Part shown: in pieces, positions 2,610 to 11,129 of the stretch
Position numbering within the stretch: the stretch's first letter is position 1
Layout of the letters: each line of letters starts with the position of its first letter
IMG/VR virus record: IMGVR_UViG_2617270947_000015
Source: a virus
Taxonomy: Duplodnaviria; Heunggongvirae; Uroviricota; Caudoviricetes
Length of the DNA stretch: 11,129 nt
Reading direction: 5' to 3' (one strand)
Notes under the pieces: generated by a model
The model's database searches: none
What the model was told of the DNA's origin: nothing
The model's input: the letters and a program-made list of their open reading frames with translations, nothing else
Position numbers and translations under genes: made by a program

Positions 2610-4360
2610 AACTGGCACCGAACGTAAAAAAACAACCACGCGGAATAAAACACAAAGACACAGAGGTAATTATTTTCGCGGGTAGTGATGCGTGGTCACA
2701 TGCAAAACAGTGGCAGGAGCAGGACGGCCCCGCATCCGGCGATAATGTGCCGCCTGTGTGGCTTGGGCCAAATCAGCTTGCCGAACTTGATGCGCTGAAA
2801 ATTGTTCCGGATGGGAAAAAGCGCGTAAGGCTGTACCAGGCCGGAGAACTGGATTTAGTGGAGACCAAAAAGATTGGTCAGAAGCTGGCGGCGGCAGATA
2901 TTCAGGACGCAAATTTTTACCCTGATGGTATGCACGGTCAGAAGGTGGAGAACTGGCGCGAATATCTGGCCCGTGAGCGCCAGAATCTTTCTGATGGTCT
3001 GGTCATTGAGCTTCCGGTAAAGCAAAAGGCGCAACTTTCGCAGATGGCGGACAGTGAGCGCGCGCAGCTGCTTGCCGATCGCTTTGATGGCGTTTGCGTA
3101 CATCCTGAAAGTGAAATCGTTCACGTATGGCGCGGCGGGGTATGGTGTCCGGTCAGCACAATGGAACTTAGCCGCGAAATGGTGGCGATCTATTCAGAGC
3201 ACAGGGCCACTTTCAGCAAGCGCGTAATCAATAACGCCGTGGAAGCGTTAAAAGTTATTGCCGAACCAATGGGCGAGCCGTCCGGCGATTTGCTGCCGTT
3301 CGCCAATGGTGCGCTTGACCTGAAAACGGGGGAATTTTCCCCGCACACGCCGGAGAACTGGATCACCACGCACAACGGCATTGAGTACACGCCACCAGCA
3401 CCAGGGGAGAACATCCGCGATAACGCGCCAAACTTTCATAAATGGCTTAAGCACGCAGCCGGAAAAGACCCGCGCAAGATGATGCGTATATGTGCCGCGC
3501 TGTACATGATTATGGCGAACCGGTACGACTGGCAGATGTTTATTGAGGCCACCGGAGACGGCGGGAGCGGTAAAAGTACATTCACGCACATAGCCAGCCT
3601 TCTGGCAGGGAAACAGAACACGGTAAGCGCTGAAATGACATCGCTTGATGATGCTGGTGGACGTGCGCAGGTTGTCGGGAGTCGTCTTATCGTCCTAGCT
3701 GACCAGCCGAAATATACAGGCGAAGGAACGGGCATCAAGAAAATCACGGGCGGTGACCCCGTGGAAATTAACCCGAAATACGAAAAGCGTTTCACGGCTG
3801 TAATCAGGGCGGTGGTGCTGGCGACCAACAATAACCCGATGATATTCACCGAACGGGCCGAAGGTGTGGCACGTCGTCGCGTGATTTTCCGTTTCGACAA
3901 TATCGTCAGTGAGGCCGAAAAAGACAGGGAGCTACCGGAAAAGATCGCGGCTGAAATCCCTGTCATTATCCGCCGATTGCTGGCGAACTTTACCGACCCT
4001 GAGAAGGCACGGGCTTTACTACTGGAACAGCGTGACGGTGATGAAGCACTGGCAATAAAGCAACAGACGGATCCGGTTATTGAGTTTTGCCAGTTCCTGA
4101 ATTTTCTGGAGGAAGCGCGCGGCCTGATGATGGGGGGCGGTGGCGATTCAGTGAAGTACACGACCAGGAACAGCCTTTACCGCGTCTATCTGGCGTTTAT
4201 GGCATACGCAGGCAGGAGCAAACCGCTAAACGTAAATGACTTTGGAAAGGCTATGAAGCCTGCCGCAAAAGTTTACGGACATGAATATATTACGCGGAAA
4301 GTTAAGGGGGTAACGCAGACTAACGCAATAACAACAGACGAGTGCGACGCGTTTTTATAA
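2606..4360 (+). CDS. Satellite/phage replication protein: P4/D5-family primase-helicase-like NTPase (584 aa)
   Basis: Walker A GDGGSGKST and Walker B-like RLIVLAD motifs in the C-terminal half, with the overall D5_N / P4-family primase C-terminal (SF3 helicase-like) layout. It is followed immediately by an iteron array. The N-terminal ~300 aa are of unclear domain identity. Confidence 0.85.
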   Translation: MKLAPNVKKQPRGIKHKDTEVIIFAGSDAWSHAKQWQEQDGPASGDNVPPVWLGPNQLAELDALKIVPDGKKRVRLYQAGELDLVETKKIGQKLAAADIQDANFYPDGMHGQKVENWREYLARERQNLSDGLVIELPVKQKAQLSQMADSERAQLLADRFDGVCVHPESEIVHVWRGGVWCPVSTMELSREMVAIYSEHRATFSKRVINNAVEALKVIAEPMGEPSGDLLPFANGALDLKTGEFSPHTPENWITTHNGIEYTPPAPGENIRDNAPNFHKWLKHAAGKDPRKMMRICAALYMIMANRYDWQMFIEATGDGGSGKSTFTHIASLLAGKQNTVSAEMTSLDDAGGRAQVVGSRLIVLADQPKYTGEGTGIKKITGGDPVEINPKYEKRFTAVIRAVVLATNNNPMIFTERAEGVARRRVIFRFDNIVSEAEKDRELPEKIAAEIPVIIRRLLANFTDPEKARALLLEQRDGDEALAIKQQTDPVIEFCQFLNFLEEARGLMMGGGGDSVKYTTRNSLYRVYLAFMAYAGRSKPLNVNDFGKAMKPAAKVYGHEYITRKVKGVTQTNAITTDECDAFL

Positions 4361-4373
4361 TTTTTTGTAATTG

Positions 4374-4600
4374 CTGTCTACCCTGTCTACCTGAGTAAAG
4401 AAAAATACATTTAATTCAGTGCATTAAGTTAGGTAGACAGCCTTTTTTTACTGTCTACCCACTATCTACCCTCTCTACCTGATTTTACCTGAATCAGACA
4501 GGGAGGTAGACACGGGGTAGATAGTGGATAAAAGCACTCTACCCCGCTGAAAGCCGCGCCATTACTGGCATGAGGGCCACTAAGGTAGATAAGGTAGACA
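4374..4600. repeat. Iteron array, putative replication origin
   Basis: At least 11 copies of an 8-mer TGTCTACC / GGTAGACA (variants TATCTACC, GGTAGATA, CTCTACC) in both orientations, e.g. 4376-4383, 4384-4391, 4432-4439, 4452-4459, 4463-4470, 4505-4512, 4517-4524, 4584-4591, 4593-4600. Non-coding and directly downstream of the primase-helicase gene. Confidence 0.8.
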
Positions 4601-4648
4601 AGGGGAGGCACAACTCAAAACTTTTTAAACGAGGGGGTAAAAATAAAT

Positions 4649-5761: not shown

Positions 5762-5968
5762 ATGGCTGAAGAGAAAAAAGGCGGTGTTTCGGTGTACATA
5801 AGCCCCGAAATCGTGGAGGTGCTCAAGCAGCGCCACAAAAAAAACTATGAGGCTGGCGTGGCGGCTGGACTGGATCCGCTGATGACGCCGGAGCCGTCGA
5901 TAGGTTCACTTGTACGCTCTTATTTACTTGCGGCGCTTGGGATGCATAAAAATTATGGGGGTGAATAA
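5762..5968 (+). CDS. Hypothetical small protein (68 aa), translationally coupled to the major capsid gene
   Basis: GAGGAA Shine-Dalgarno; its stop TAA overlaps the capsid gene ATG at 5968 (TAATGG). Translation MAEEKKGGVSVYISPEIVEVLKQRHKKNYEAGVAAGLDPLMTPEPSIGSLVRSYLLAALGMHKNYGGE. Confidence 0.55.
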   Translation: MAEEKKGGVSVYISPEIVEVLKQRHKKNYEAGVAAGLDPLMTPEPSIGSLVRSYLLAALGMHKNYGGE

Positions 5969-7023
5969 TGGCAGGCAAAGCAACGGCACTTAACACTAAC
6001 CAGCTTTTCATGTACCTGAATCGCGGGGATATTGCGGATTTTAAATTCAGCCCTCTGTTTACTACGCTGTTTTTCCCGAACGTGGCGACATTCAGCACGC
6101 AAAACATCATGCTGGATACCCTGGACATTGAAGAAGTCACCATGTCGGCGTTTTGTTCGCCTATGGTGGGTAGCCAGGTTCAGCGCGATAAAGGGTACGA
6201 AACCAGCACGATTAAACCTGGCTACATGAAGCCAAAGCACGAAATCGATCCAACGAAAACCATCATGCGCATGGCTGGAGAAGATCCGGCACAGCTTAAC
6301 GACCCTACCTATCGCCGTATGCGCCTGATTACTGGCAATATGCGCCGCCAGATAAACGCCATAAAAGCGCGCGTGGAATGGCTGGCGGTAAATGCGGTAA
6401 CGACCGGAAAAAACATCATTGAGGGCGAAGGCATAGAGCGCTATGAAATCGACTGGAAGATACCGGAAAAAAACATCATAGAGCAGGCCGACGGGAAAAA
6501 ATGGTCAGAGCAGGACAAAGAAACCCACGATCCAATCTATGATATCGAACTATACGCCGATCAGGCTGGTTGCCCCGCAAACGTCATGATTATGGGCGCT
6601 GAGGTATGGCGAACGTTACGCAGCTTTAAAAAATTCCGTGAGCTGTACGATCTTTCCCGTGGTTCAGAATCCGCCGCCGAACTGGCCTGTAAAAACCTGG
6701 GCGAAGTGGTGAGCTTTAAAGGCTATCTTGGTGATCTGGCCCTTATCGTCTATTCCGGCAAATACACTGACAGCGATGGTACCGAAAAATATTTCCTTGA
6801 GCCTGATTTGCTGGTCCTGGGCAACACCAACAATAAAGGGCTGGTGGCCTATGGTGCGATAATGGATCAGGAAGCGGTAAGAACGGGCGCAACACAAAAC
6901 ATGTTTTACCCGAAAAACTGGATTGAGGACGGCGATCCGGCGATTGAGTACGTGCAGACACACAGTGCACCGCAGCCGGTACCGGCAGATATTCGCAAAT
7001 TTGTTACCGTCAAAATTGGTTAA
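5968..7023 (+). CDS. Major capsid protein, lambda gpE-like (351 aa)
   Basis: Collinear similarity to lambda gpE as I recall it: FKFSPLF..LFF, TIKPGYMKPKHEIDP, EDPAQLNDPTYRRMR, KWSEQDKETHDP, LRSFK, SFKGYLGDLALIVYSGKY, LVLGNT, YPKNWIEDGDPA, with similar length. Strong GGGGGTGA Shine-Dalgarno. Confidence 0.85.
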   Translation: MAGKATALNTNQLFMYLNRGDIADFKFSPLFTTLFFPNVATFSTQNIMLDTLDIEEVTMSAFCSPMVGSQVQRDKGYETSTIKPGYMKPKHEIDPTKTIMRMAGEDPAQLNDPTYRRMRLITGNMRRQINAIKARVEWLAVNAVTTGKNIIEGEGIERYEIDWKIPEKNIIEQADGKKWSEQDKETHDPIYDIELYADQAGCPANVMIMGAEVWRTLRSFKKFRELYDLSRGSESAAELACKNLGEVVSFKGYLGDLALIVYSGKYTDSDGTEKYFLEPDLLVLGNTNNKGLVAYGAIMDQEAVRTGATQNMFYPKNWIEDGDPAIEYVQTHSAPQPVPADIRKFVTVKIG

Positions 7024-7035
7024 CGGGGGGATTCT

Positions 7036-7371
7036 ATGGACACTCCATACATTGAGTTATTTGCAGGCAGTCAGCAGGTCGCCACGACGCTGGTACATTT
7101 TGCCGCTGATGCTGGCGTTATTCAGGAATTTACCCCGCTGATGCTGGCAGACAATGGCGAGTTTAAGCCGTGGGATGGTCAGGAATCTGGCAAGGCTGTT
7201 TATCTGACCTCGTACCCTGTGGACACGTCAAAGCAGAAATCAGCACAGTGTTACAAGACGGGGATTTTCAATATTGCCGCCGTTAACTGGCCTGAGAGCG
7301 TCGACACCGATGCGAAAAAATGCGCCGCCTTTGCGGGTTCTGGCGTATCCGTTCAGCCGCTGGCCCGATAA
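7036..7371 (+). CDS. Head decoration protein, lambda gpD-like (111 aa)
   Basis: Same length class as lambda gpD with shared motifs TPLML, WDG, YKTGIF (lambda YKSGTF), WPE, DAKK.AAFAG. GGGGGG Shine-Dalgarno. Adjacent to the gpE-like gene. Confidence 0.75.
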   Translation: MDTPYIELFAGSQQVATTLVHFAADAGVIQEFTPLMLADNGEFKPWDGQESGKAVYLTSYPVDTSKQKSAQCYKTGIFNIAAVNWPESVDTDAKKCAAFAGSGVSVQPLAR

Positions 7372-7383
7372 GCAGGGGGAACG

Positions 7384-7797
7384 ATGGCAACGAATGAAAG
7401 CGTCATGACGCTACCGCTGGCGAGTAAATTTAAAGCCGAAGCGCGGGCAATGGCTGACAGAGGTTTATCAACCTACGAGGCCGTATATCAACTCAACAAA
7501 CTGGAAGAGCAGGACAAGCCGCGCGCTGATGCGATTATGGCGCTTCATGAACATAACGACTATCAGCCGCTGTTACGTGCAATGGCAAACGTGCCATGTA
7601 TTAGCGTCGATAATGCTCGTGAAATCCTGAACATGACCATAGAGCAGGAGCGCCCAAAGGTTGCGCCGGAGCTTACCGCAGCCTTTGAAAACTTTATGGA
7701 CATGCACAGCCCGAAAGCCGTATCACCCGGCATGGCATACGACGGCAGAAACCAGGGCGATGAAGGCGACGTCGATCGCATACTGAAAACCATCTGA
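7384..7797 (+). CDS. Hypothetical protein (137 aa), last gene of the capsid operon, immediately upstream of cos
   Basis: GGGGGAACG Shine-Dalgarno. Translation MATNESVMTLPLASKFKAEARAMADRGLSTYEAVYQLNKLEEQDKPRADAIMALHEHNDYQPLLRAMANVP.... The terminator hairpin and cos site follow directly. Confidence 0.6.
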   Translation: MATNESVMTLPLASKFKAEARAMADRGLSTYEAVYQLNKLEEQDKPRADAIMALHEHNDYQPLLRAMANVPCISVDNAREILNMTIEQERPKVAPELTAAFENFMDMHSPKAVSPGMAYDGRNQGDEGDVDRILKTI

Positions 7798-7803
7798 CAT
7801 AAG

Positions 7804-7826
7804 GCCGGAGAAATCCGGCTTTTTTT
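7804..7826 (+). terminator. Rho-independent terminator fused to the upstream edge of the cos site
   Basis: Stem GCCGGA (7804-7809) / TCCGGC (7814-7819), loop GAAA, then TTTTTTT (7820-7826). Confidence 0.7.
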
Positions 7827-7900
7827 ACGGGTCCTTTCCGGCATATGGACCCGTTACGGGGCGGCGACCTCGCGGGTTTTCGCTATTTATGACGTTTTTC
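7827..7900 (+). other. Lambda-type cos site (cosQ-cosN plus start of cosB), intact copy A
   Basis: ACGGGTCCTTTCCGG...GTTACG-GGGCGGCGACCTCGCGGGTTTTCGCTATTTATGA. The 12-nt lambda cohesive-end sequence GGGCGGCGACCT is exact at 7859-7870, and the flanks match the lambda right-end/left-end junction as I recall it. A Nu1-like gene follows, as in lambda. Confidence 0.85.
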
Positions 7901-7959
7901 CGTGAAGGTGACACCACCACCACTTGATTAATATTTAACCATGCGGTTAAGGTAACATT

Positions 7960-8400
7960 ATGATTGATAAAGCTTGTTTTGTAAGTCAGCAGGAAATAGC
8001 TGAACATTTCAAGGTTAACAGAACCACTATTCGCGCATGGACCAAACAGGGGATGCCGTATCTTAATGCGGATCGCGGAAAGTCTGGCGGTTATCACATC
8101 GGGCATACATTGCTTTGGTCTTCAGGTAAAAGCCGTCTTGAGGCCATCAGATATCACGTAGAAACCAGTGCGCTGGAAAAAATTATGTTTGCCAGGCTGC
8201 TTTCATCTGAGCGTGACGAGTACTCCAGTGAAGAAACAGAACATCGATTTGATGAAGGTTTGCAGATTTACGGCTATTCACCGGAAGATGTGAGCAAGGC
8301 ACGAAATAAAATGGCTGGCTTTCTGGCTGGGTGGCGTCATGCCGTAAGCGTTCGCCGTGCCAGCATGGAACAATCAGTCGTTACAGAACAGCAAAGTTAA
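7960..8400 (+). CDS. Small-terminase-like DNA-binding protein (lambda Nu1-like winged HTH N-terminus, 146 aa); candidate cos-recognition / packaging-redirection factor
   Basis: N-terminus VSQQEIAEHFKVNRTTIRAWTKQGMPYLNADRGKSGG aligns with lambda Nu1 VNKKQLADIFGASIRTIQNWQEQGMPVLRGGGKGN. It sits about 60 bp downstream of cos, in the lambda Nu1 position, but no large-terminase gene follows. Confidence 0.7.
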   Translation: MIDKACFVSQQEIAEHFKVNRTTIRAWTKQGMPYLNADRGKSGGYHIGHTLLWSSGKSRLEAIRYHVETSALEKIMFARLLSSERDEYSSEETEHRFDEGLQIYGYSPEDVSKARNKMAGFLAGWRHAVSVRRASMEQSVVTEQQS

Positions 8401-8430
8401 AAATCACTTTCTGTTACGCCATCAAATACG

Positions 8431-8580
8431 CAATACAACAACCACGTATTTTTTTAAAACTATTTGATTCAATTAGCATTTTTTTATTTTTAGCATCAAA
8501 AAAACACTATCAGGTTGTTGTATTGCTCTTTATTTTTACTTAGTTATCAAATGGATATGACAAACAATTAAACAACAACC
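8431..8580. repeat. AT-rich non-coding region with three copies of a GGTTGTTGT-type motif (candidate cosB-like protein-binding sites for the inverted cos copy)
   Basis: CAATACAACAACC at 8431-8443 and its perfect inverse GGTTGTTGTATTG at 8513-8525, 69 bp apart, plus AAACAACAACC at 8570-8580. The sequence between them is extremely AT-rich. Confidence 0.5.
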
Positions 8581-8595
8581 TCCCTCTAAAAAAGC

Positions 8596-8663
8596 TCATA
8601 AATAGCGAAAAACCGCGAGGTCGCCGCCCCGTAACGGGCCATAATTCCAGGAAGGACCCGACG
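8596..8663 (-). other. Second lambda-type cos site in inverted orientation (copy C)
   Basis: Minus-strand reading is GGGTCCTTCCTGGAATTATGGCCCGTTACG-GGGCGGCGACCTCGCGGTTTTTCGCTATTTATGA. The reverse complement of the 12-mer, AGGTCGCCGCCC, is at 8618-8629. About 65 bp are near-identical to copy A, but this copy lacks the upstream terminator hairpin. Confidence 0.8.
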
Positions 8664-8693
8664 ACACCAGACTATCAGAACGATGGGGGCACA

Positions 8694-8975
8694 ATGACAG
8701 AAGCCGAAATACTGCGATTAATCCGCCGCGTTGCCGGAATCAGCCAGCAGCATGACGAACAGGCCACGCAGCCGGACAGCGTGACCGCTGAAAATTATGT
8801 GCGTGTTGTTGCTGAGGTGATGCGCCGTGATGGTATCCAGCTTAATGATGTTGATATGCGCGACATACGGATCCGCGTTCTGGAAATGCTGGCCTACAAT
8901 CGCCGCGTTGAACTGTATCGGGAGAAAGAAAAAATAACGTACCACTGGAAGAAGCCGGAGCGGTTGCGGCGGTAA
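8694..8975 (+). CDS. Hypothetical protein (93 aa)
   Basis: GGGGG Shine-Dalgarno 5 nt upstream of the ATG. Translation MTEAEILRLIRRVAGISQQHDEQATQPDSVTAENYVRVVAEVMRRDGIQLNDVDMRDIRIRVLEMLAYNRR.... Confidence 0.55.
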   Translation: MTEAEILRLIRRVAGISQQHDEQATQPDSVTAENYVRVVAEVMRRDGIQLNDVDMRDIRIRVLEMLAYNRRVELYREKEKITYHWKKPERLRR

Positions 8976-9587
8976 CTGGTTGATATTTTCGAAATTCGCC
9001 AGCGGCGAACATCGGGGAAACCAGCCTAACCCGTTGATATTTTCGGAAACCTCAATTTGAGGAAGTCGGCGCGGTAACTCGCTGAACTTAAAGCAAAGCG
9101 CAAAATTGCGCTTGCTGAATAATCATTATGATTACGCAGATGATTAAGGAATGACCGAAGGCGGAAATTCGCCTGTGGTTAATGGGGGAGTTGCAGATCT
9201 GCAACTCGACCATGAAACTACGGAAACTACCCGTAGTTTGGGTAGTAAGAGTAACACCCAGATTTTGGGGCTTACTCGTGATACCCAAATTTGGGGTATC
9301 GGTGGCAACCATAACGACTTTCGTTACGGTTGATGCTTTTACCCCATTGGGGGAAAGGTATTACGATAATCATAACACCTACCGAACAGGTAAAGCCCAC
9401 CAGCCTGATTAACGTTTAACCGGAAAAAAATTCCGGTAGGTGGGGATCCCCATATAGACATTAACGCCCCTCATGAATTGGTGCGCTTCCCCCTGGAAAG
9501 ATGATCCGCCTGTATATTTCTTGTGTCTATTTGTTCCACGTTGTTTCATACGGTGCACCGAACGGTGTAGTTAATGGTGTAGTCAAT
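8966..9587. repeat. Repeat- and palindrome-dense non-coding region between the last island ORF and phoQ (candidate att arm / regulatory region)
   Basis: Direct repeats GTTGATATTTTCG(A/G)AA at 8979-8994 and 9033-9049; GCGGTAACT at 8968-8976 and 9071-9079. Palindromes AAGCGCAA-aa-TTGCGCTT (9096-9113), GTTGCAGATCTGCAAC (9190-9205), AAACTAC-cc-GTAGTTT (9224-9239), CCGGAA-aaaaa-TTCCGG (~9420-9437), CGGTGCACCG (9551-9560). Tandem GGTGTAGTTAAT / GGTGTAGTCAAT (9564-9587). Confidence 0.5.
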
Positions 9588-9668
9588 TTGCGATTTTTGG
9601 CACTTTTTCAGTGTAGATTATTTAATTAAATCAATGGTTTGTCTTGATATAGTGATAAAAGGGCATAT

Positions 9669-11129
9669 TTATTCATCTTTCGGCGCAGAATGCTGGCGAC
9701 CAAAAATCACCTCCATCCGCGCACCGCCCAGCATGCTCTCTCCGGCGACGATTTTACCCTCATATTGCTCGGTGATTTCGCGGGCTACCGCCAGCCCTAC
9801 ACCTTGCCCAGGGCGTAAAGTATCAACCCGTTGACCACGGTCGAAAATGACCTCTCGCTTGCTTAATGGAATACCGGGGCCATCATCCTCGACCACAATA
9901 TAGAGATGCTCGTCGGTTTGCCTTGCAGAAATTTCGACAAACTCGAGGCAATATTTACAGGCATTATCCAGCACGTTGCCCATCACCTCGACAAAATCGT
10001 TCTGCTCACCGACAAAGCTGATCTCTGGCGAAATATCGAGAGAGATATTGACCCCTTTGCGTTGATACACTTTGTTCAGCGCTGAGGTGAGATTGTCCAG
10101 CAGTGGGGCGACCGGATGCAGCTCGCGGCTGAGCAATGTCCCGCCGCGCATACTGGCACGATGCAGGTAGTAGCCAATTTGCTGTGAAATGCGGCTGATT
10201 TGCTCCAGCATTACCGGCTCAGCATCACTGACGCTCATCTTTTCACTACGCAGAGAACGCAGCGTACTTTGCAGCACCGCCAGTGGCGTTTTCAGACTAT
10301 GGGTCAGGTCGGTGAGCGTCGTACGGTATTTGTCGTAACGTTCGCGTTCACTTTTTAACAATCGGTTCAGGTTTCGTACCAGACTGGTCAGTTCTCGCGT
10401 TGTGGCTGGATTGAGCAATTCGCGGTTATGTTCTTCCAGTTCGCGGACTTCTTTTGCCAGGGCTTCGATGGGGCGTAAACTCCACCAGGCGGCGACCCAC
10501 AGCAGCGGGATCACTAACAGCAGATTGGCTGAGAGCACATAGATAAACCAGCTCCAGACCATATAGGAACTTTTTAGCTCCACCGGAATGGTATCCACCA
10601 CCACAATGGTTAATTTTGGCATCCGCGATGTTGCCGGGTAGACGTTTACTGCCACCGAGTGGGTCATCTCCGCGTCGTCATCATCTTCCCGCACTTCCTG
10701 CAACTGTTGCTGTATCGAATGATCTCCACTCAGCAAGAGGCTGGTATCGTTAACATCCGCTTCAATTTCATGAAAACCATTCGATTTCAGCCAGTCAGGC
10801 TGGATCATCTTCATCAGCCAGGGCACGTCACGTTGCGCCCATAAAAGCTGCCCGTTCTCATCATAAATTAGCGTCATGGTGGGGCTTTGCTTGTCGATAT
10901 TTTCGGGTAACTCGACATGCAACTTATTGTTTTCCCACTTCGCAAGGGTATAGAACAGATTGCTCTCGCCACGTAACAGCCGAAACGTAGTTTTATCGAA
11001 ACTGACGCTATAACCGATCAGCGCGACCATTCCGTAGGCAAGCGAAAGCACCAGTACTACCGCTGCCGTTGCCAACAGAAAACGTACCCGCAGCGAGAGC
11101 GGGAAAAAAAGACGCAGTAATTTTTTCAT
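9669..11129 (-). CDS. phoQ: Sensor histidine kinase PhoQ of the PhoP/PhoQ two-component system, complete, 486 aa
   Basis: Translation [83 protein letters not shown]...HSAPKDE matches E. coli PhoQ: two transmembrane segments, periplasmic sensor domain, HAMP, DHp histidine box ([12 protein letters not shown]) and HATPase domain. The start codon is the last three bases of the window. Confidence 0.97.

Follow-up and report, generated by a model that had tools for sequence, protein, structure and literature searches.

Positions 8966-9668 of the 11,129-nucleotide stretch of DNA analysed here (IMG/VR record IMGVR_UViG_2617270947_000015, Caudoviricetes; hereafter the window) hold about 700 bp of palindrome-rich DNA next to phoQ. 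To judge from its gene layout, iteron origin and lambda-type cos, the window is the right 11 kb of a phage satellite of the phage-inducible chromosomal island (PICI) type, integrated between roxA and phoQ. The reading that we favour, and to which we would give an even chance of being correct, is that these 700 bp are the non-coding right end of the satellite, comprising one arm of its attachment (att) site and an array of copies of regulator sites from helper phages. This reading draws on the anatomy of the region, on the fixed geometry and compensatory variation of its repeated units, on their presence throughout the satellite family, and on their sequence matches to phage genes.

The first-pass annotation of the region had pointed to several perfect palindromes at unusual density, one of them of 16 bp, to three families of short repeats, and to an absence of open reading frames (ORFs) and of tRNA-like sequence, and all of these observations hold. 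When inverted repeats are required to be perfect, with a stem of at least 6 and a loop of at most 8 nucleotides, 8966-9668 contains 23 at about 13 distinct places, compared with 2.0 +/- 1.7 (maximum 8) in 500 dinucleotide shuffles, none of which reaches 23, and with 0-8 per 703 bp elsewhere in the window. The strong palindromes all lie within 8995-9452, and the palindrome-rich part extends over 8973-9460. The 16-bp palindrome, GTTGCAGATCTGCAAC, extends by two bases on either side to a perfect palindrome of 20 bp, GAGTTGCAGATCTGCAACTC, at 9188-9207. The ORFs in the region are purely mechanical ones of 40-76 amino acids, RefSeq has no gene here in a near-identical strain, and neither a tRNA/tmRNA scan nor a scan of both strands of 8600-9800 against Rfam 15 (E<=1) gave a match. 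The three repeat families are as follows:

8973 and 9027, 54 nt apart: repeat family i, TAAC..GTTGATATTTTCG, with a degenerate third copy at 9075
9215-9231: repeat family ii, AAACTAC in tandem
9564-9587: repeat family iii, GGTGTAGTTAAT GGTGTAGTCAAT in tandem

The first of these families marks composite units, in which an IHF consensus is followed by a palindrome. They directly follow a conserved ORF, ORF93, whose last codons and stop (GCGGCGGTAAC) are at the same time the start of the first unit, and in the window they occur at 8973, 9027 and 9075 only:

8694-8975, + strand: ORF93, 93 amino acids, phrog_1561, which precedes the array in the related satellites examined
8973-9026, + strand: unit A1, with the IHF core consensus TATCAACCAGTTA on the - strand at 8973-8985 and the palindrome TTCGCC-agc-GGCGAA at 8995-9009
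9027-9074, + strand: unit A2, with the IHF core consensus TATCAACGGGTTA on the - strand at 9027-9039 and the palindrome CCTCAA-t-TTGAGG at 9050-9062
9075-9115, + strand: unit B, with a degenerate leader, TAACTCGCTGAAC, in which the IHF consensus is imperfect, and the palindrome AAGCGCAA-aa-TTGCGCTT at 9096-9113

Across satellites, 66 distinct units share this design, i.e., the leader TAAC-NNN-YTGATATT-YYCG-RAA and then a palindrome. The complementary strand of the leader, WATCAANNNNTTR, is the IHF core consensus, which is perfect in 31 of the 66 distinct units, with 8 different N4 sequences; in the window the IHF consensus occurs four times where 0.52 occurrences are expected, and three of the four lie in 8966-9668. 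Counted from the T of TAAC, the palindrome is centred at a distance of 29-30 nt in 50 of 53 distinct units, irrespective of the stem length, 5-12 bp. There are 23 palindrome types, none of which is found twice in one satellite. Among 18 units that could be aligned without gaps, double-sided changes affect four of seven base pairs (22 such cells, with no one-sided change); none of 500 shuffles scores as high, and controls in which the alignment was slid pair at 30-48% compared with 84%. It should be noted that G-T mismatches outnumber A-C mismatches beside the stems (40 vs. 14), a difference that was not used, as the units are not independent.

Composite units and the 20-bp palindrome have counterparts in phage genes, and every such match falls either inside a phage gene or at an unannotated position. 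In annotated records, composite units always match genes for Roi, an anti-repressor, a DNA-binding protein or a regulator, and a Pfam search found a Phage_pRha or KilA-N domain in every fetched phage gene that was scanned. Unit A2 matches codons 41-53 of roi from HK620, H-19B and many Shiga toxin (Stx) phages at 33 of 36 positions (E 4e-4), which is the sole phage match of the whole region at E<0.01, and all 52 phage matches of A2 lie in roi, anti-repressor or DNA-binding protein genes or at unannotated positions. Unit A1 matches codons 41-55 of the Phage_pRha gene of Stx2 phage Stx2_EH2201 (35/43); the product of this gene is a Roi homologue, 59% identical, and the match covers the same codons. 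The palindrome of unit B is found in Rha-family regulator genes of Stx2a phages (21/21, codons 58-65). The 20-bp palindrome has counterparts in KilA-N genes of two phages, SfII of Shigella (26/30) and Pmp14 of Pasteurella (20/20), and in the latter even the synonymous positions agree. Matches were likewise obtained with units of other satellites, namely to roi of phi330 and to KilA-N genes of two Salmonella phages, ST64B and UPF_BP1. Within the region encoding the N-terminal domain, the palindrome that is matched stands out in every case, and it lies at codons 43-60. The matches are short (20-47 nt), and similarity does not continue past the borders of the site into the gene. As palindromes, the copies in satellites equal or surpass those in the coding regions.

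The geometry of the units is also present in the phage genes. In HK022 roi, the gene that has been the subject of experiments, a perfect IHF consensus, AATCAATGATTTA, is spaced from the palindrome CTGCAaTGCAG as in the units, and this arrangement is common to the roi-type genes of HK022, HK620, phi330 and Stx2_EH2201. These matches point to a feature that has been overlooked in phage biology: genes of the Rha/Roi and KilA-N families, whose regulators are widespread but little understood, carry a conserved palindrome in the region encoding their own DNA-binding domain, to which Roi adds an IHF site at a fixed spacing. It seems that roi encodes its own site and a variable protein segment in the same codons. 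On the strength of these likenesses in sequence, IHF and proteins of the Roi, Rha or KilA-N type would be expected to bind the array.

Several further observations concern the phage genes themselves. Among four Roi alleles (HK022 roi, at locus L096 6656-7381, and those at loci L004, L090 and L092), the most divergent segment comprises approximately residues 42-50, which the palindrome encodes, and in phi330 Roi two amino-acid changes extend the palindrome arms from 6 to 8 bp. The HK620 roi gene (L004 636-1358) has five perfect palindromes with 6-bp stems where codon shuffles have about one; the palindrome at codon 44 alone is matched by the satellite. The KilA-N genes of the Shigella and Pasteurella phages (L095 1001-1030 and L097 901-920) have in common the palindrome AGTTGCAGATCTGCAACT, which encodes LQICNS, and because it is identical at all synonymous positions, selection would appear to act on the DNA, beyond the peptide. 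The same peptide begins the 76-amino-acid mechanical ORF of the window (9182-9412, + strand, MGELQICNS...), since this ORF reads through the 20-bp palindrome. In some strains RefSeq calls a second hypothetical protein in the region, and the status of the 76-amino-acid ORF as a gene is unsupported.

Such palindromes could, in principle, act in RNA, either as hairpins that stabilise or terminate a late transcript or as antisense modules directed against the roi, rha and kilA mRNAs of helpers, much as the c4 RNA of P1 acts on ant. We consider this improbable. Both strands of the region do fold far more strongly than shuffles (z -10.0 and -9.6), the array would be read by run-through transcription from ORF93, and the Roi, Rha and ST64B matches place the + strand of the satellite antisense to the phage gene. 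However, the two strands show almost no asymmetry in folding, the KilA-N matches of SfII and Pmp14 are in the sense orientation, Rfam offers no match, and promoter- and terminator-like sites are not above the level of shuffles, the single useful match in that search being lambda cosN, outside the region. Moreover, each of the 22 changes seen in the unit palindromes exchanges both partners of a Watson-Crick pair, with no G-U intermediates, conservation of the leader coincides with the positions of the IHF DNA consensus whereas N4 is variable, and the fixed feature is the centre of the palindrome rather than the ends of its stem. Because the centre is fixed, compensation is of the Watson-Crick type without wobble and the IHF positions are conserved, the composite units point to double-stranded DNA sites for a dimeric protein beside an IHF bend, rather than to RNA.

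The position of some of the matched genes might suggest another role for such DNA sites, namely that the satellite copies helper origins so that helper initiators replicate it. The lambda origin lies inside the O gene, and in Eru-type Stx phages the Phage_pRha gene lies directly after cro, where lambda has O; the pRha gene of Stx2_EH2201, which A1 matches, follows cro in this way. In the paper on Eru phages, pRha genes are assigned to the replication position, and the replication proteins are stated to be unknown. Nonetheless, such mimicry is hardly to be expected: roi lies in the nin region of phages with ordinary O/P-type replication genes, each site has a single palindrome, with neither an iteron set nor a clear AT-rich unwinding element, and the satellite has a primase-helicase and an iteron origin of its own. 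An origin of the satellite itself within the region was likewise rejected, as the iterons are at 4360-4620.

Beyond the composite units, the palindrome-rich part continues with further elements, most of which fall into two modules:

9120-9134: palindrome TAATCAT-t-ATGATTA
9154-9179: imperfect palindrome ACCGAAGGCGGAAATTCGCCTGTGGT
9183-9305: module C, with the 20-bp perfect palindrome at 9188-9207, interlocked AAACTAC / GTAGTTT at 9215-9246 and GATACC-N9-GGTATC at 9280-9300
9304-9470: module D, with hairpins at 9312-9326 and 9419-9437 (ACCGGAA-aaaaa-TTCCGGT) and the palindrome TGGGGATCCCCA at 9441-9452

A phage counterpart was sought for the palindromes at 9120-9179, and none was found. Comparison of 80 IMG/VR loci, retrieved by means of the conserved ORF93, reveals that modules A (8973-9074), B (9075-9149), C and D and the att arm may each be present, absent, repeated or reordered. 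For example, the hairpin at 9154-9179 lies before module C in the window and after it in loci L006, L007 and L089, and module C is 94-96% identical in satellites with unrelated flanks. The modules are common to satellites with different integrases and att sites (phoQ, tqsA, clpS and a phage capsid gene) and with different capsid and packaging types, including capsid-forming PICIs (cf-PICIs) like EcCIEDL933; the copy of 9026-9634 in an EcCIEDL933-like element is 98% identical. An array lies behind ORF93 in most related E. coli satellites, and among 44 distinct right ends this position has 5.6 distinct perfect hairpins per 450 bp compared with 0.75 in shuffles. Parts of 8966-9640 are matched, in pieces, by 1609 of 5426 complete E. 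coli genomes (approx. 30%), at a median of 1 and a maximum of 7 places per genome, and every place inspected is the right end of a satellite. In one locus (L089 2097-3700), a satellite of the family is inserted in the major capsid gene of a lambdoid prophage. Its copy of module C is 75% identical, and immediately behind this copy the opposite strand carries a gene for an 'abortive infection family protein'.

Such mosaicism is what would be expected if the region were a functionless cargo hotspot, filled with scraps from recombination with helper phages, whose palindromes are kept because they are prone to recombination. Its extreme extent, the sharp borders of the modules, the repeated GCGGTAAC junctions, the shortness of the phage-gene matches, and the occurrence here of an abortive infection gene in one relative and of insertion sequences or small ORFs in others are all in keeping with this view. 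Scraps, however, would hardly be perfect palindromes that equal or surpass their coding originals, nor would they be expected to end at the borders of a site, to keep module C nearly identical between unrelated flanks, to hold a fixed geometry in 50 of 53 units, to change in a compensatory manner, or to avoid any duplication of a palindrome within one satellite. In addition, a small satellite limited by its capsid retains 500-900 bp of array in 38 of 46 distinct right ends. It is therefore unlikely that the array is merely debris. Other candidates for the content of the region were also rejected: cargo genes, as most relatives have none here; cos or cosB, as cosQ-cosN is at 8600-8670 and the array occurs also in cf-PICIs with a different packaging module; and, by eye, a sigma-54 promoter, a XerCD/dif-like site and nick sites like those of a transfer origin (oriT), for which spacing or sequence does not fit.

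The remainder of the region, next to phoQ, is of a different kind. The first-pass annotation had found the features of the whole region to fit an attachment region, and this stands for 9531-9670, which has a core, arm repeats and an IHF consensus, and fails for the palindromes at 8995-9452. The features of this part are as follows:

9531-9660, + strand: P arm of attP (here attR), with a 58-nt block, 9531-9588, that is duplicated in the P' arm
9564-9575 and 9576-9587: two arm-type Int sites in tandem, unlike the core
9629-9641: IHF consensus AATCAATGGTTTG, 20 bp from the core-type site
9653-9660: core-type site TGATAAAA
9661-9670: att core GGGCATATTT, with the overlap region GGGCATA, overlapping the phoQ stop codon

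The junction with phoQ, whose stop codon is at 9669-9671, is confirmed. A 99.8% identical stretch in E. coli MEI4BO-21 (locus L001), likewise between roxA and phoQ, supplies the other end of the island, where the first-pass annotation had suggested a search for a matching core of 15-25 bp; the core present there, at attL (L001 approx. 9509-9518), is the 10-bp GGGCATATTT. It was also proposed that an island-free strain be compared; K-12 lacks the region, which is thus not ordinary intergenic DNA of that strain, and has only a 75-bp spacer between roxA and phoQ, and in this empty site (...tatGGGCATATTTattcatc...) the core is identical to those of attL in L001 and attR in the window. Joining the two ends reconstructs attP as TGATAAAA-GGGCATA-TTTTATCA, a perfect 8-bp inverted pair around a 7-bp overlap. 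The duplicate of the 58-nt block lies just upstream of int, and two copies of the arm repeat GGTGTAGTYAAT are present in each arm, at 9564-9587 and upstream of int. Both arms have GGTGTAGTCACT as their repeat in locus L002, a relative whose insertion site is tqsA, and because the two arms change together, the arm repeats belong to the element. Homology between elements at different att sites ends approx. 25 bp before the core. On this sequence evidence 9531-9670 is a standard P arm and core of a tyrosine-integrase attachment site, and for that part the first-pass annotation was therefore right. The tandem arm-type repeats and the core-type site would be the targets of the integrase, whose gene lies at the other end, and IHF would bend the DNA at 9629-9641. 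Thus, the exact right boundary of the satellite is fixed (core 9661-9670), and the att arm can be separated from the rest in annotation.

Two relatives show the attachment site in other states. A 10,790-bp circular 'plasmid' record (NZ_CP148328.1, locus L007) appears to be an excised satellite of this family, as its right end is joined to int, and it offers indirect evidence of excision to a circle; it contains int, alpA, primase, a protease-capsid fusion, ORF93, module C and what would be a natural attP junction. At the phoQ site of locus L057 (2876-2990), the att core follows immediately upon a unit leader (...TTGATTCTTTCGG/ACATATTTATTCATC). This element has lost the entire P arm together with the remainder of the array, and is therefore probably immobilised.

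Given a genuine attP arm at the end of the region, and an IHF consensus in A1 and A2 as well as beside the core, it might be argued that the whole 700 bp are one large attachment region, the palindromes being sites for accessory factors such as Xis/AlpA, IHF and Fis. This is very unlikely. The arms duplicated around the core are 130-150 bp long, with arm homology spanning approx. 130 bp, whereas the palindromes at 8995-9452 lie 200-690 bp from the core and are not arm-type sites. Every palindrome is different, which would not suit a single Xis, and modules A-D vary among satellites with the same arm-type sites and are common to satellites with other integrases and att sites. Module D, in particular, is missing from loci L006 and L007, which have the same arm-type sites, and is therefore outside the att machinery. 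Because the array is mosaic, is exchanged independently of integrase and att site, and in part matches regulator genes of helper phages, it is an element separate from the attachment region.

If the array does consist of copies of helper-regulator sites, the satellite would display a panel of candidate sites to which the Roi, Rha and KilA-N proteins of helpers could bind; the specificity would differ from unit to unit, and host IHF would serve as a cofactor at the composite units. Replication of the satellite would multiply these sites, which would then either titrate the regulators of the helper and so interfere with it, or report which helper has entered lytic growth and so act in sensing. 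Such a physiological role as a decoy or sensor is speculative. A more specific proposal, possible but tentative, is that the array is a diversifying 'operator library', in which each tandem unit copies the autoregulatory site, IHF consensus and palindrome together, of a different helper Roi, Rha or KilA-N regulator, and by which the satellite detects, or by titration disarms, whichever of several helpers has begun to grow lytically. If this were true, the library would be a new, cis-acting and protein-free layer of satellite-helper conflict, and many Rha and KilA-N genes would hide their own operator in the codons of the DNA-binding domain. For the recognition of lytic helpers by PICIs of Gram-negative bacteria, and for interference with them beyond packaging, the array is a concrete candidate that can readily be deleted, and it occurs in experimentally tractable elements of the EcCIEDL933 type.

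A number of points weigh against the interpretation of the array as copies of helper-regulator sites. The matches of unit B and of the 20-bp palindrome to SfII and to Pmp14 have E-values of 2-4 each, and these three matches persuade only by falling in the same two gene families. About 9 of the roughly 13 hairpins of the region, including most of those in modules C and D, have no phage counterpart, and the middle hairpin of module C is lost in the single divergent copy (L089). EcCIEDL933, a cf-PICI that shares this right end, has HK106 and HK446 as known helpers, and neither is among the phages with an A2-type roi allele. No composite unit lies near alpA or int, and in the integrated state more than 9 kb separate the array from the control region of alpA, an arrangement that would ill suit a sensor. 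Finally, the link to a known operator depends on a precedent, in which Roi reportedly binds a site within its own gene closely linked to an IHF site, IHF reportedly stabilising the complex. If this account is right, the units of the satellite would be copies of the roi operator.

The rest of the window is in accordance with a PICI-type element. In the annotation of L001, the gene order is tyrosine integrase, AlpA-like regulator, Icd-like protein, DUF4222, primase-helicase, SSB, PerC, major capsid protein, head decoration protein, three hypothetical proteins and phoQ. The element, of roughly 11 kb and thus within the approx. 10-15 kb of PICI-type satellites, has int, an alpA-like gene, a primase-helicase with an adjacent iteron origin, and capsid/packaging genes, and it has no tail or lysis genes. 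Pfam and PHROGs searches with the window proteins identify a lambda E-type capsid protein, a D-type decoration protein, a scaffold-like protein and a TerS/Rpp-like helix-turn-helix protein. The last of these has 146 amino acids and completes a gene set, at 5968-8400, that has neither a portal nor a large terminase gene and is unlike both classical PICIs and HK97-type cf-PICIs; its scaffold-like protein corresponds to the C-terminal part of the prohead protease family. The iteron origin at 4360-4620 is directly 3' of the primase-helicase gene and has the repeats CTGTCTACC / GGTAGACA, of which at least 8 similar copies, in both orientations, surround an AT-rich stretch. A lambda-type cosQ-cosN (GGGTCCT...GTTACG/GGGCGGCGACCT) is on the - strand at approx. 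8600-8670, with cosB to its left, and an AT-rich segment, 8400-8600, adjoins the cos. The orientation of cos is opposite to that of the capsid and TerS-like genes, and packaging would therefore proceed leftwards, with ORF93 and the array packaged last.

With regard to ORF93, it has neither a Pfam family nor a solved relative, and phrog_1561 assigns it no function. Its AlphaFold2 (AF2) model has three helices (predicted local distance difference test, pLDDT, 72) and no fold match, and a scan of genome contigs with ORF93 returned one locus only. A role as the protein that binds the array was rejected, given the absence of a Pfam or fold match and because a single protein cannot account for 23 palindrome types.

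Within the context of known systems, the att arm appears ordinary. As in attP of lambda- and P4-type integrases, there are a shared core, inverted core-type sites around a 7-bp overlap, tandem arm repeats in both arms, an IHF consensus between arm sites and core, and int beside the P' arm; the likeness, however, covers 9531-9670 only, as the array lies outside the arms and is exchanged independently. The layout int-alpA-primase-ori-capsid/packaging is that of E. coli PICIs and cf-PICIs (EcCICFT073 and EcCIEDL933), although cf-PICIs have an HK97-type module, whereas the window has lambda E/D-type capsid genes and a lambda-type cos. Helper induction and transfer have been shown in the literature for EcCIEDL933 only. 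Publications on PICIs (Fillol-Salom 2019 and the Alqurainy 2022 preprint) describe cos, Rpp and capsid genes, and term searches of PICI and cf-PICI papers, these two among them, turned up nothing about the non-coding right end. A connection of Roi and Rha with IHF is evident from the titles of two papers, Clerget & Boccard 1996 (J Bacteriol 178:4077) and Henthorn & Friedman 1995, and a search of the literature found no paper that links PICIs with Roi. The operator-copy array appears to be undescribed so far.

The closest known counterpart of a single unit is the site in HK022 roi, in which an IHF core consensus is likewise followed by a palindrome centred approx. 29.5 nt from the TAA of the consensus. 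The satellite copies differ in being non-coding and in tandem, each with a different palindrome, and genes for Roi, Rha or KilA-N proteins are absent from the satellite itself. An IHF site flanked by repetitive extragenic palindromic (REP) sequences is also known from the BIME-1/RIP elements of E. coli. The array resembles these elements in combining an IHF site with extragenic palindromes in a mosaic, but it is not REP sequence, its palindromes are variable, and they match phage genes; moreover, REP/BIME identity was rejected because hundreds of dispersed copies would be expected, as opposed to a median of one and at most seven places per genome, all of those inspected being satellite right ends. 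As regards the proposed logic, datA, a cluster of titration (decoy) sites for DnaA, provides a parallel, as clustered high-affinity sites with IHF as a cofactor would likewise lower the level of free regulator. The array would differ from datA-type decoys in that its proposed targets belong to the helper phage and in that several specificities are combined.

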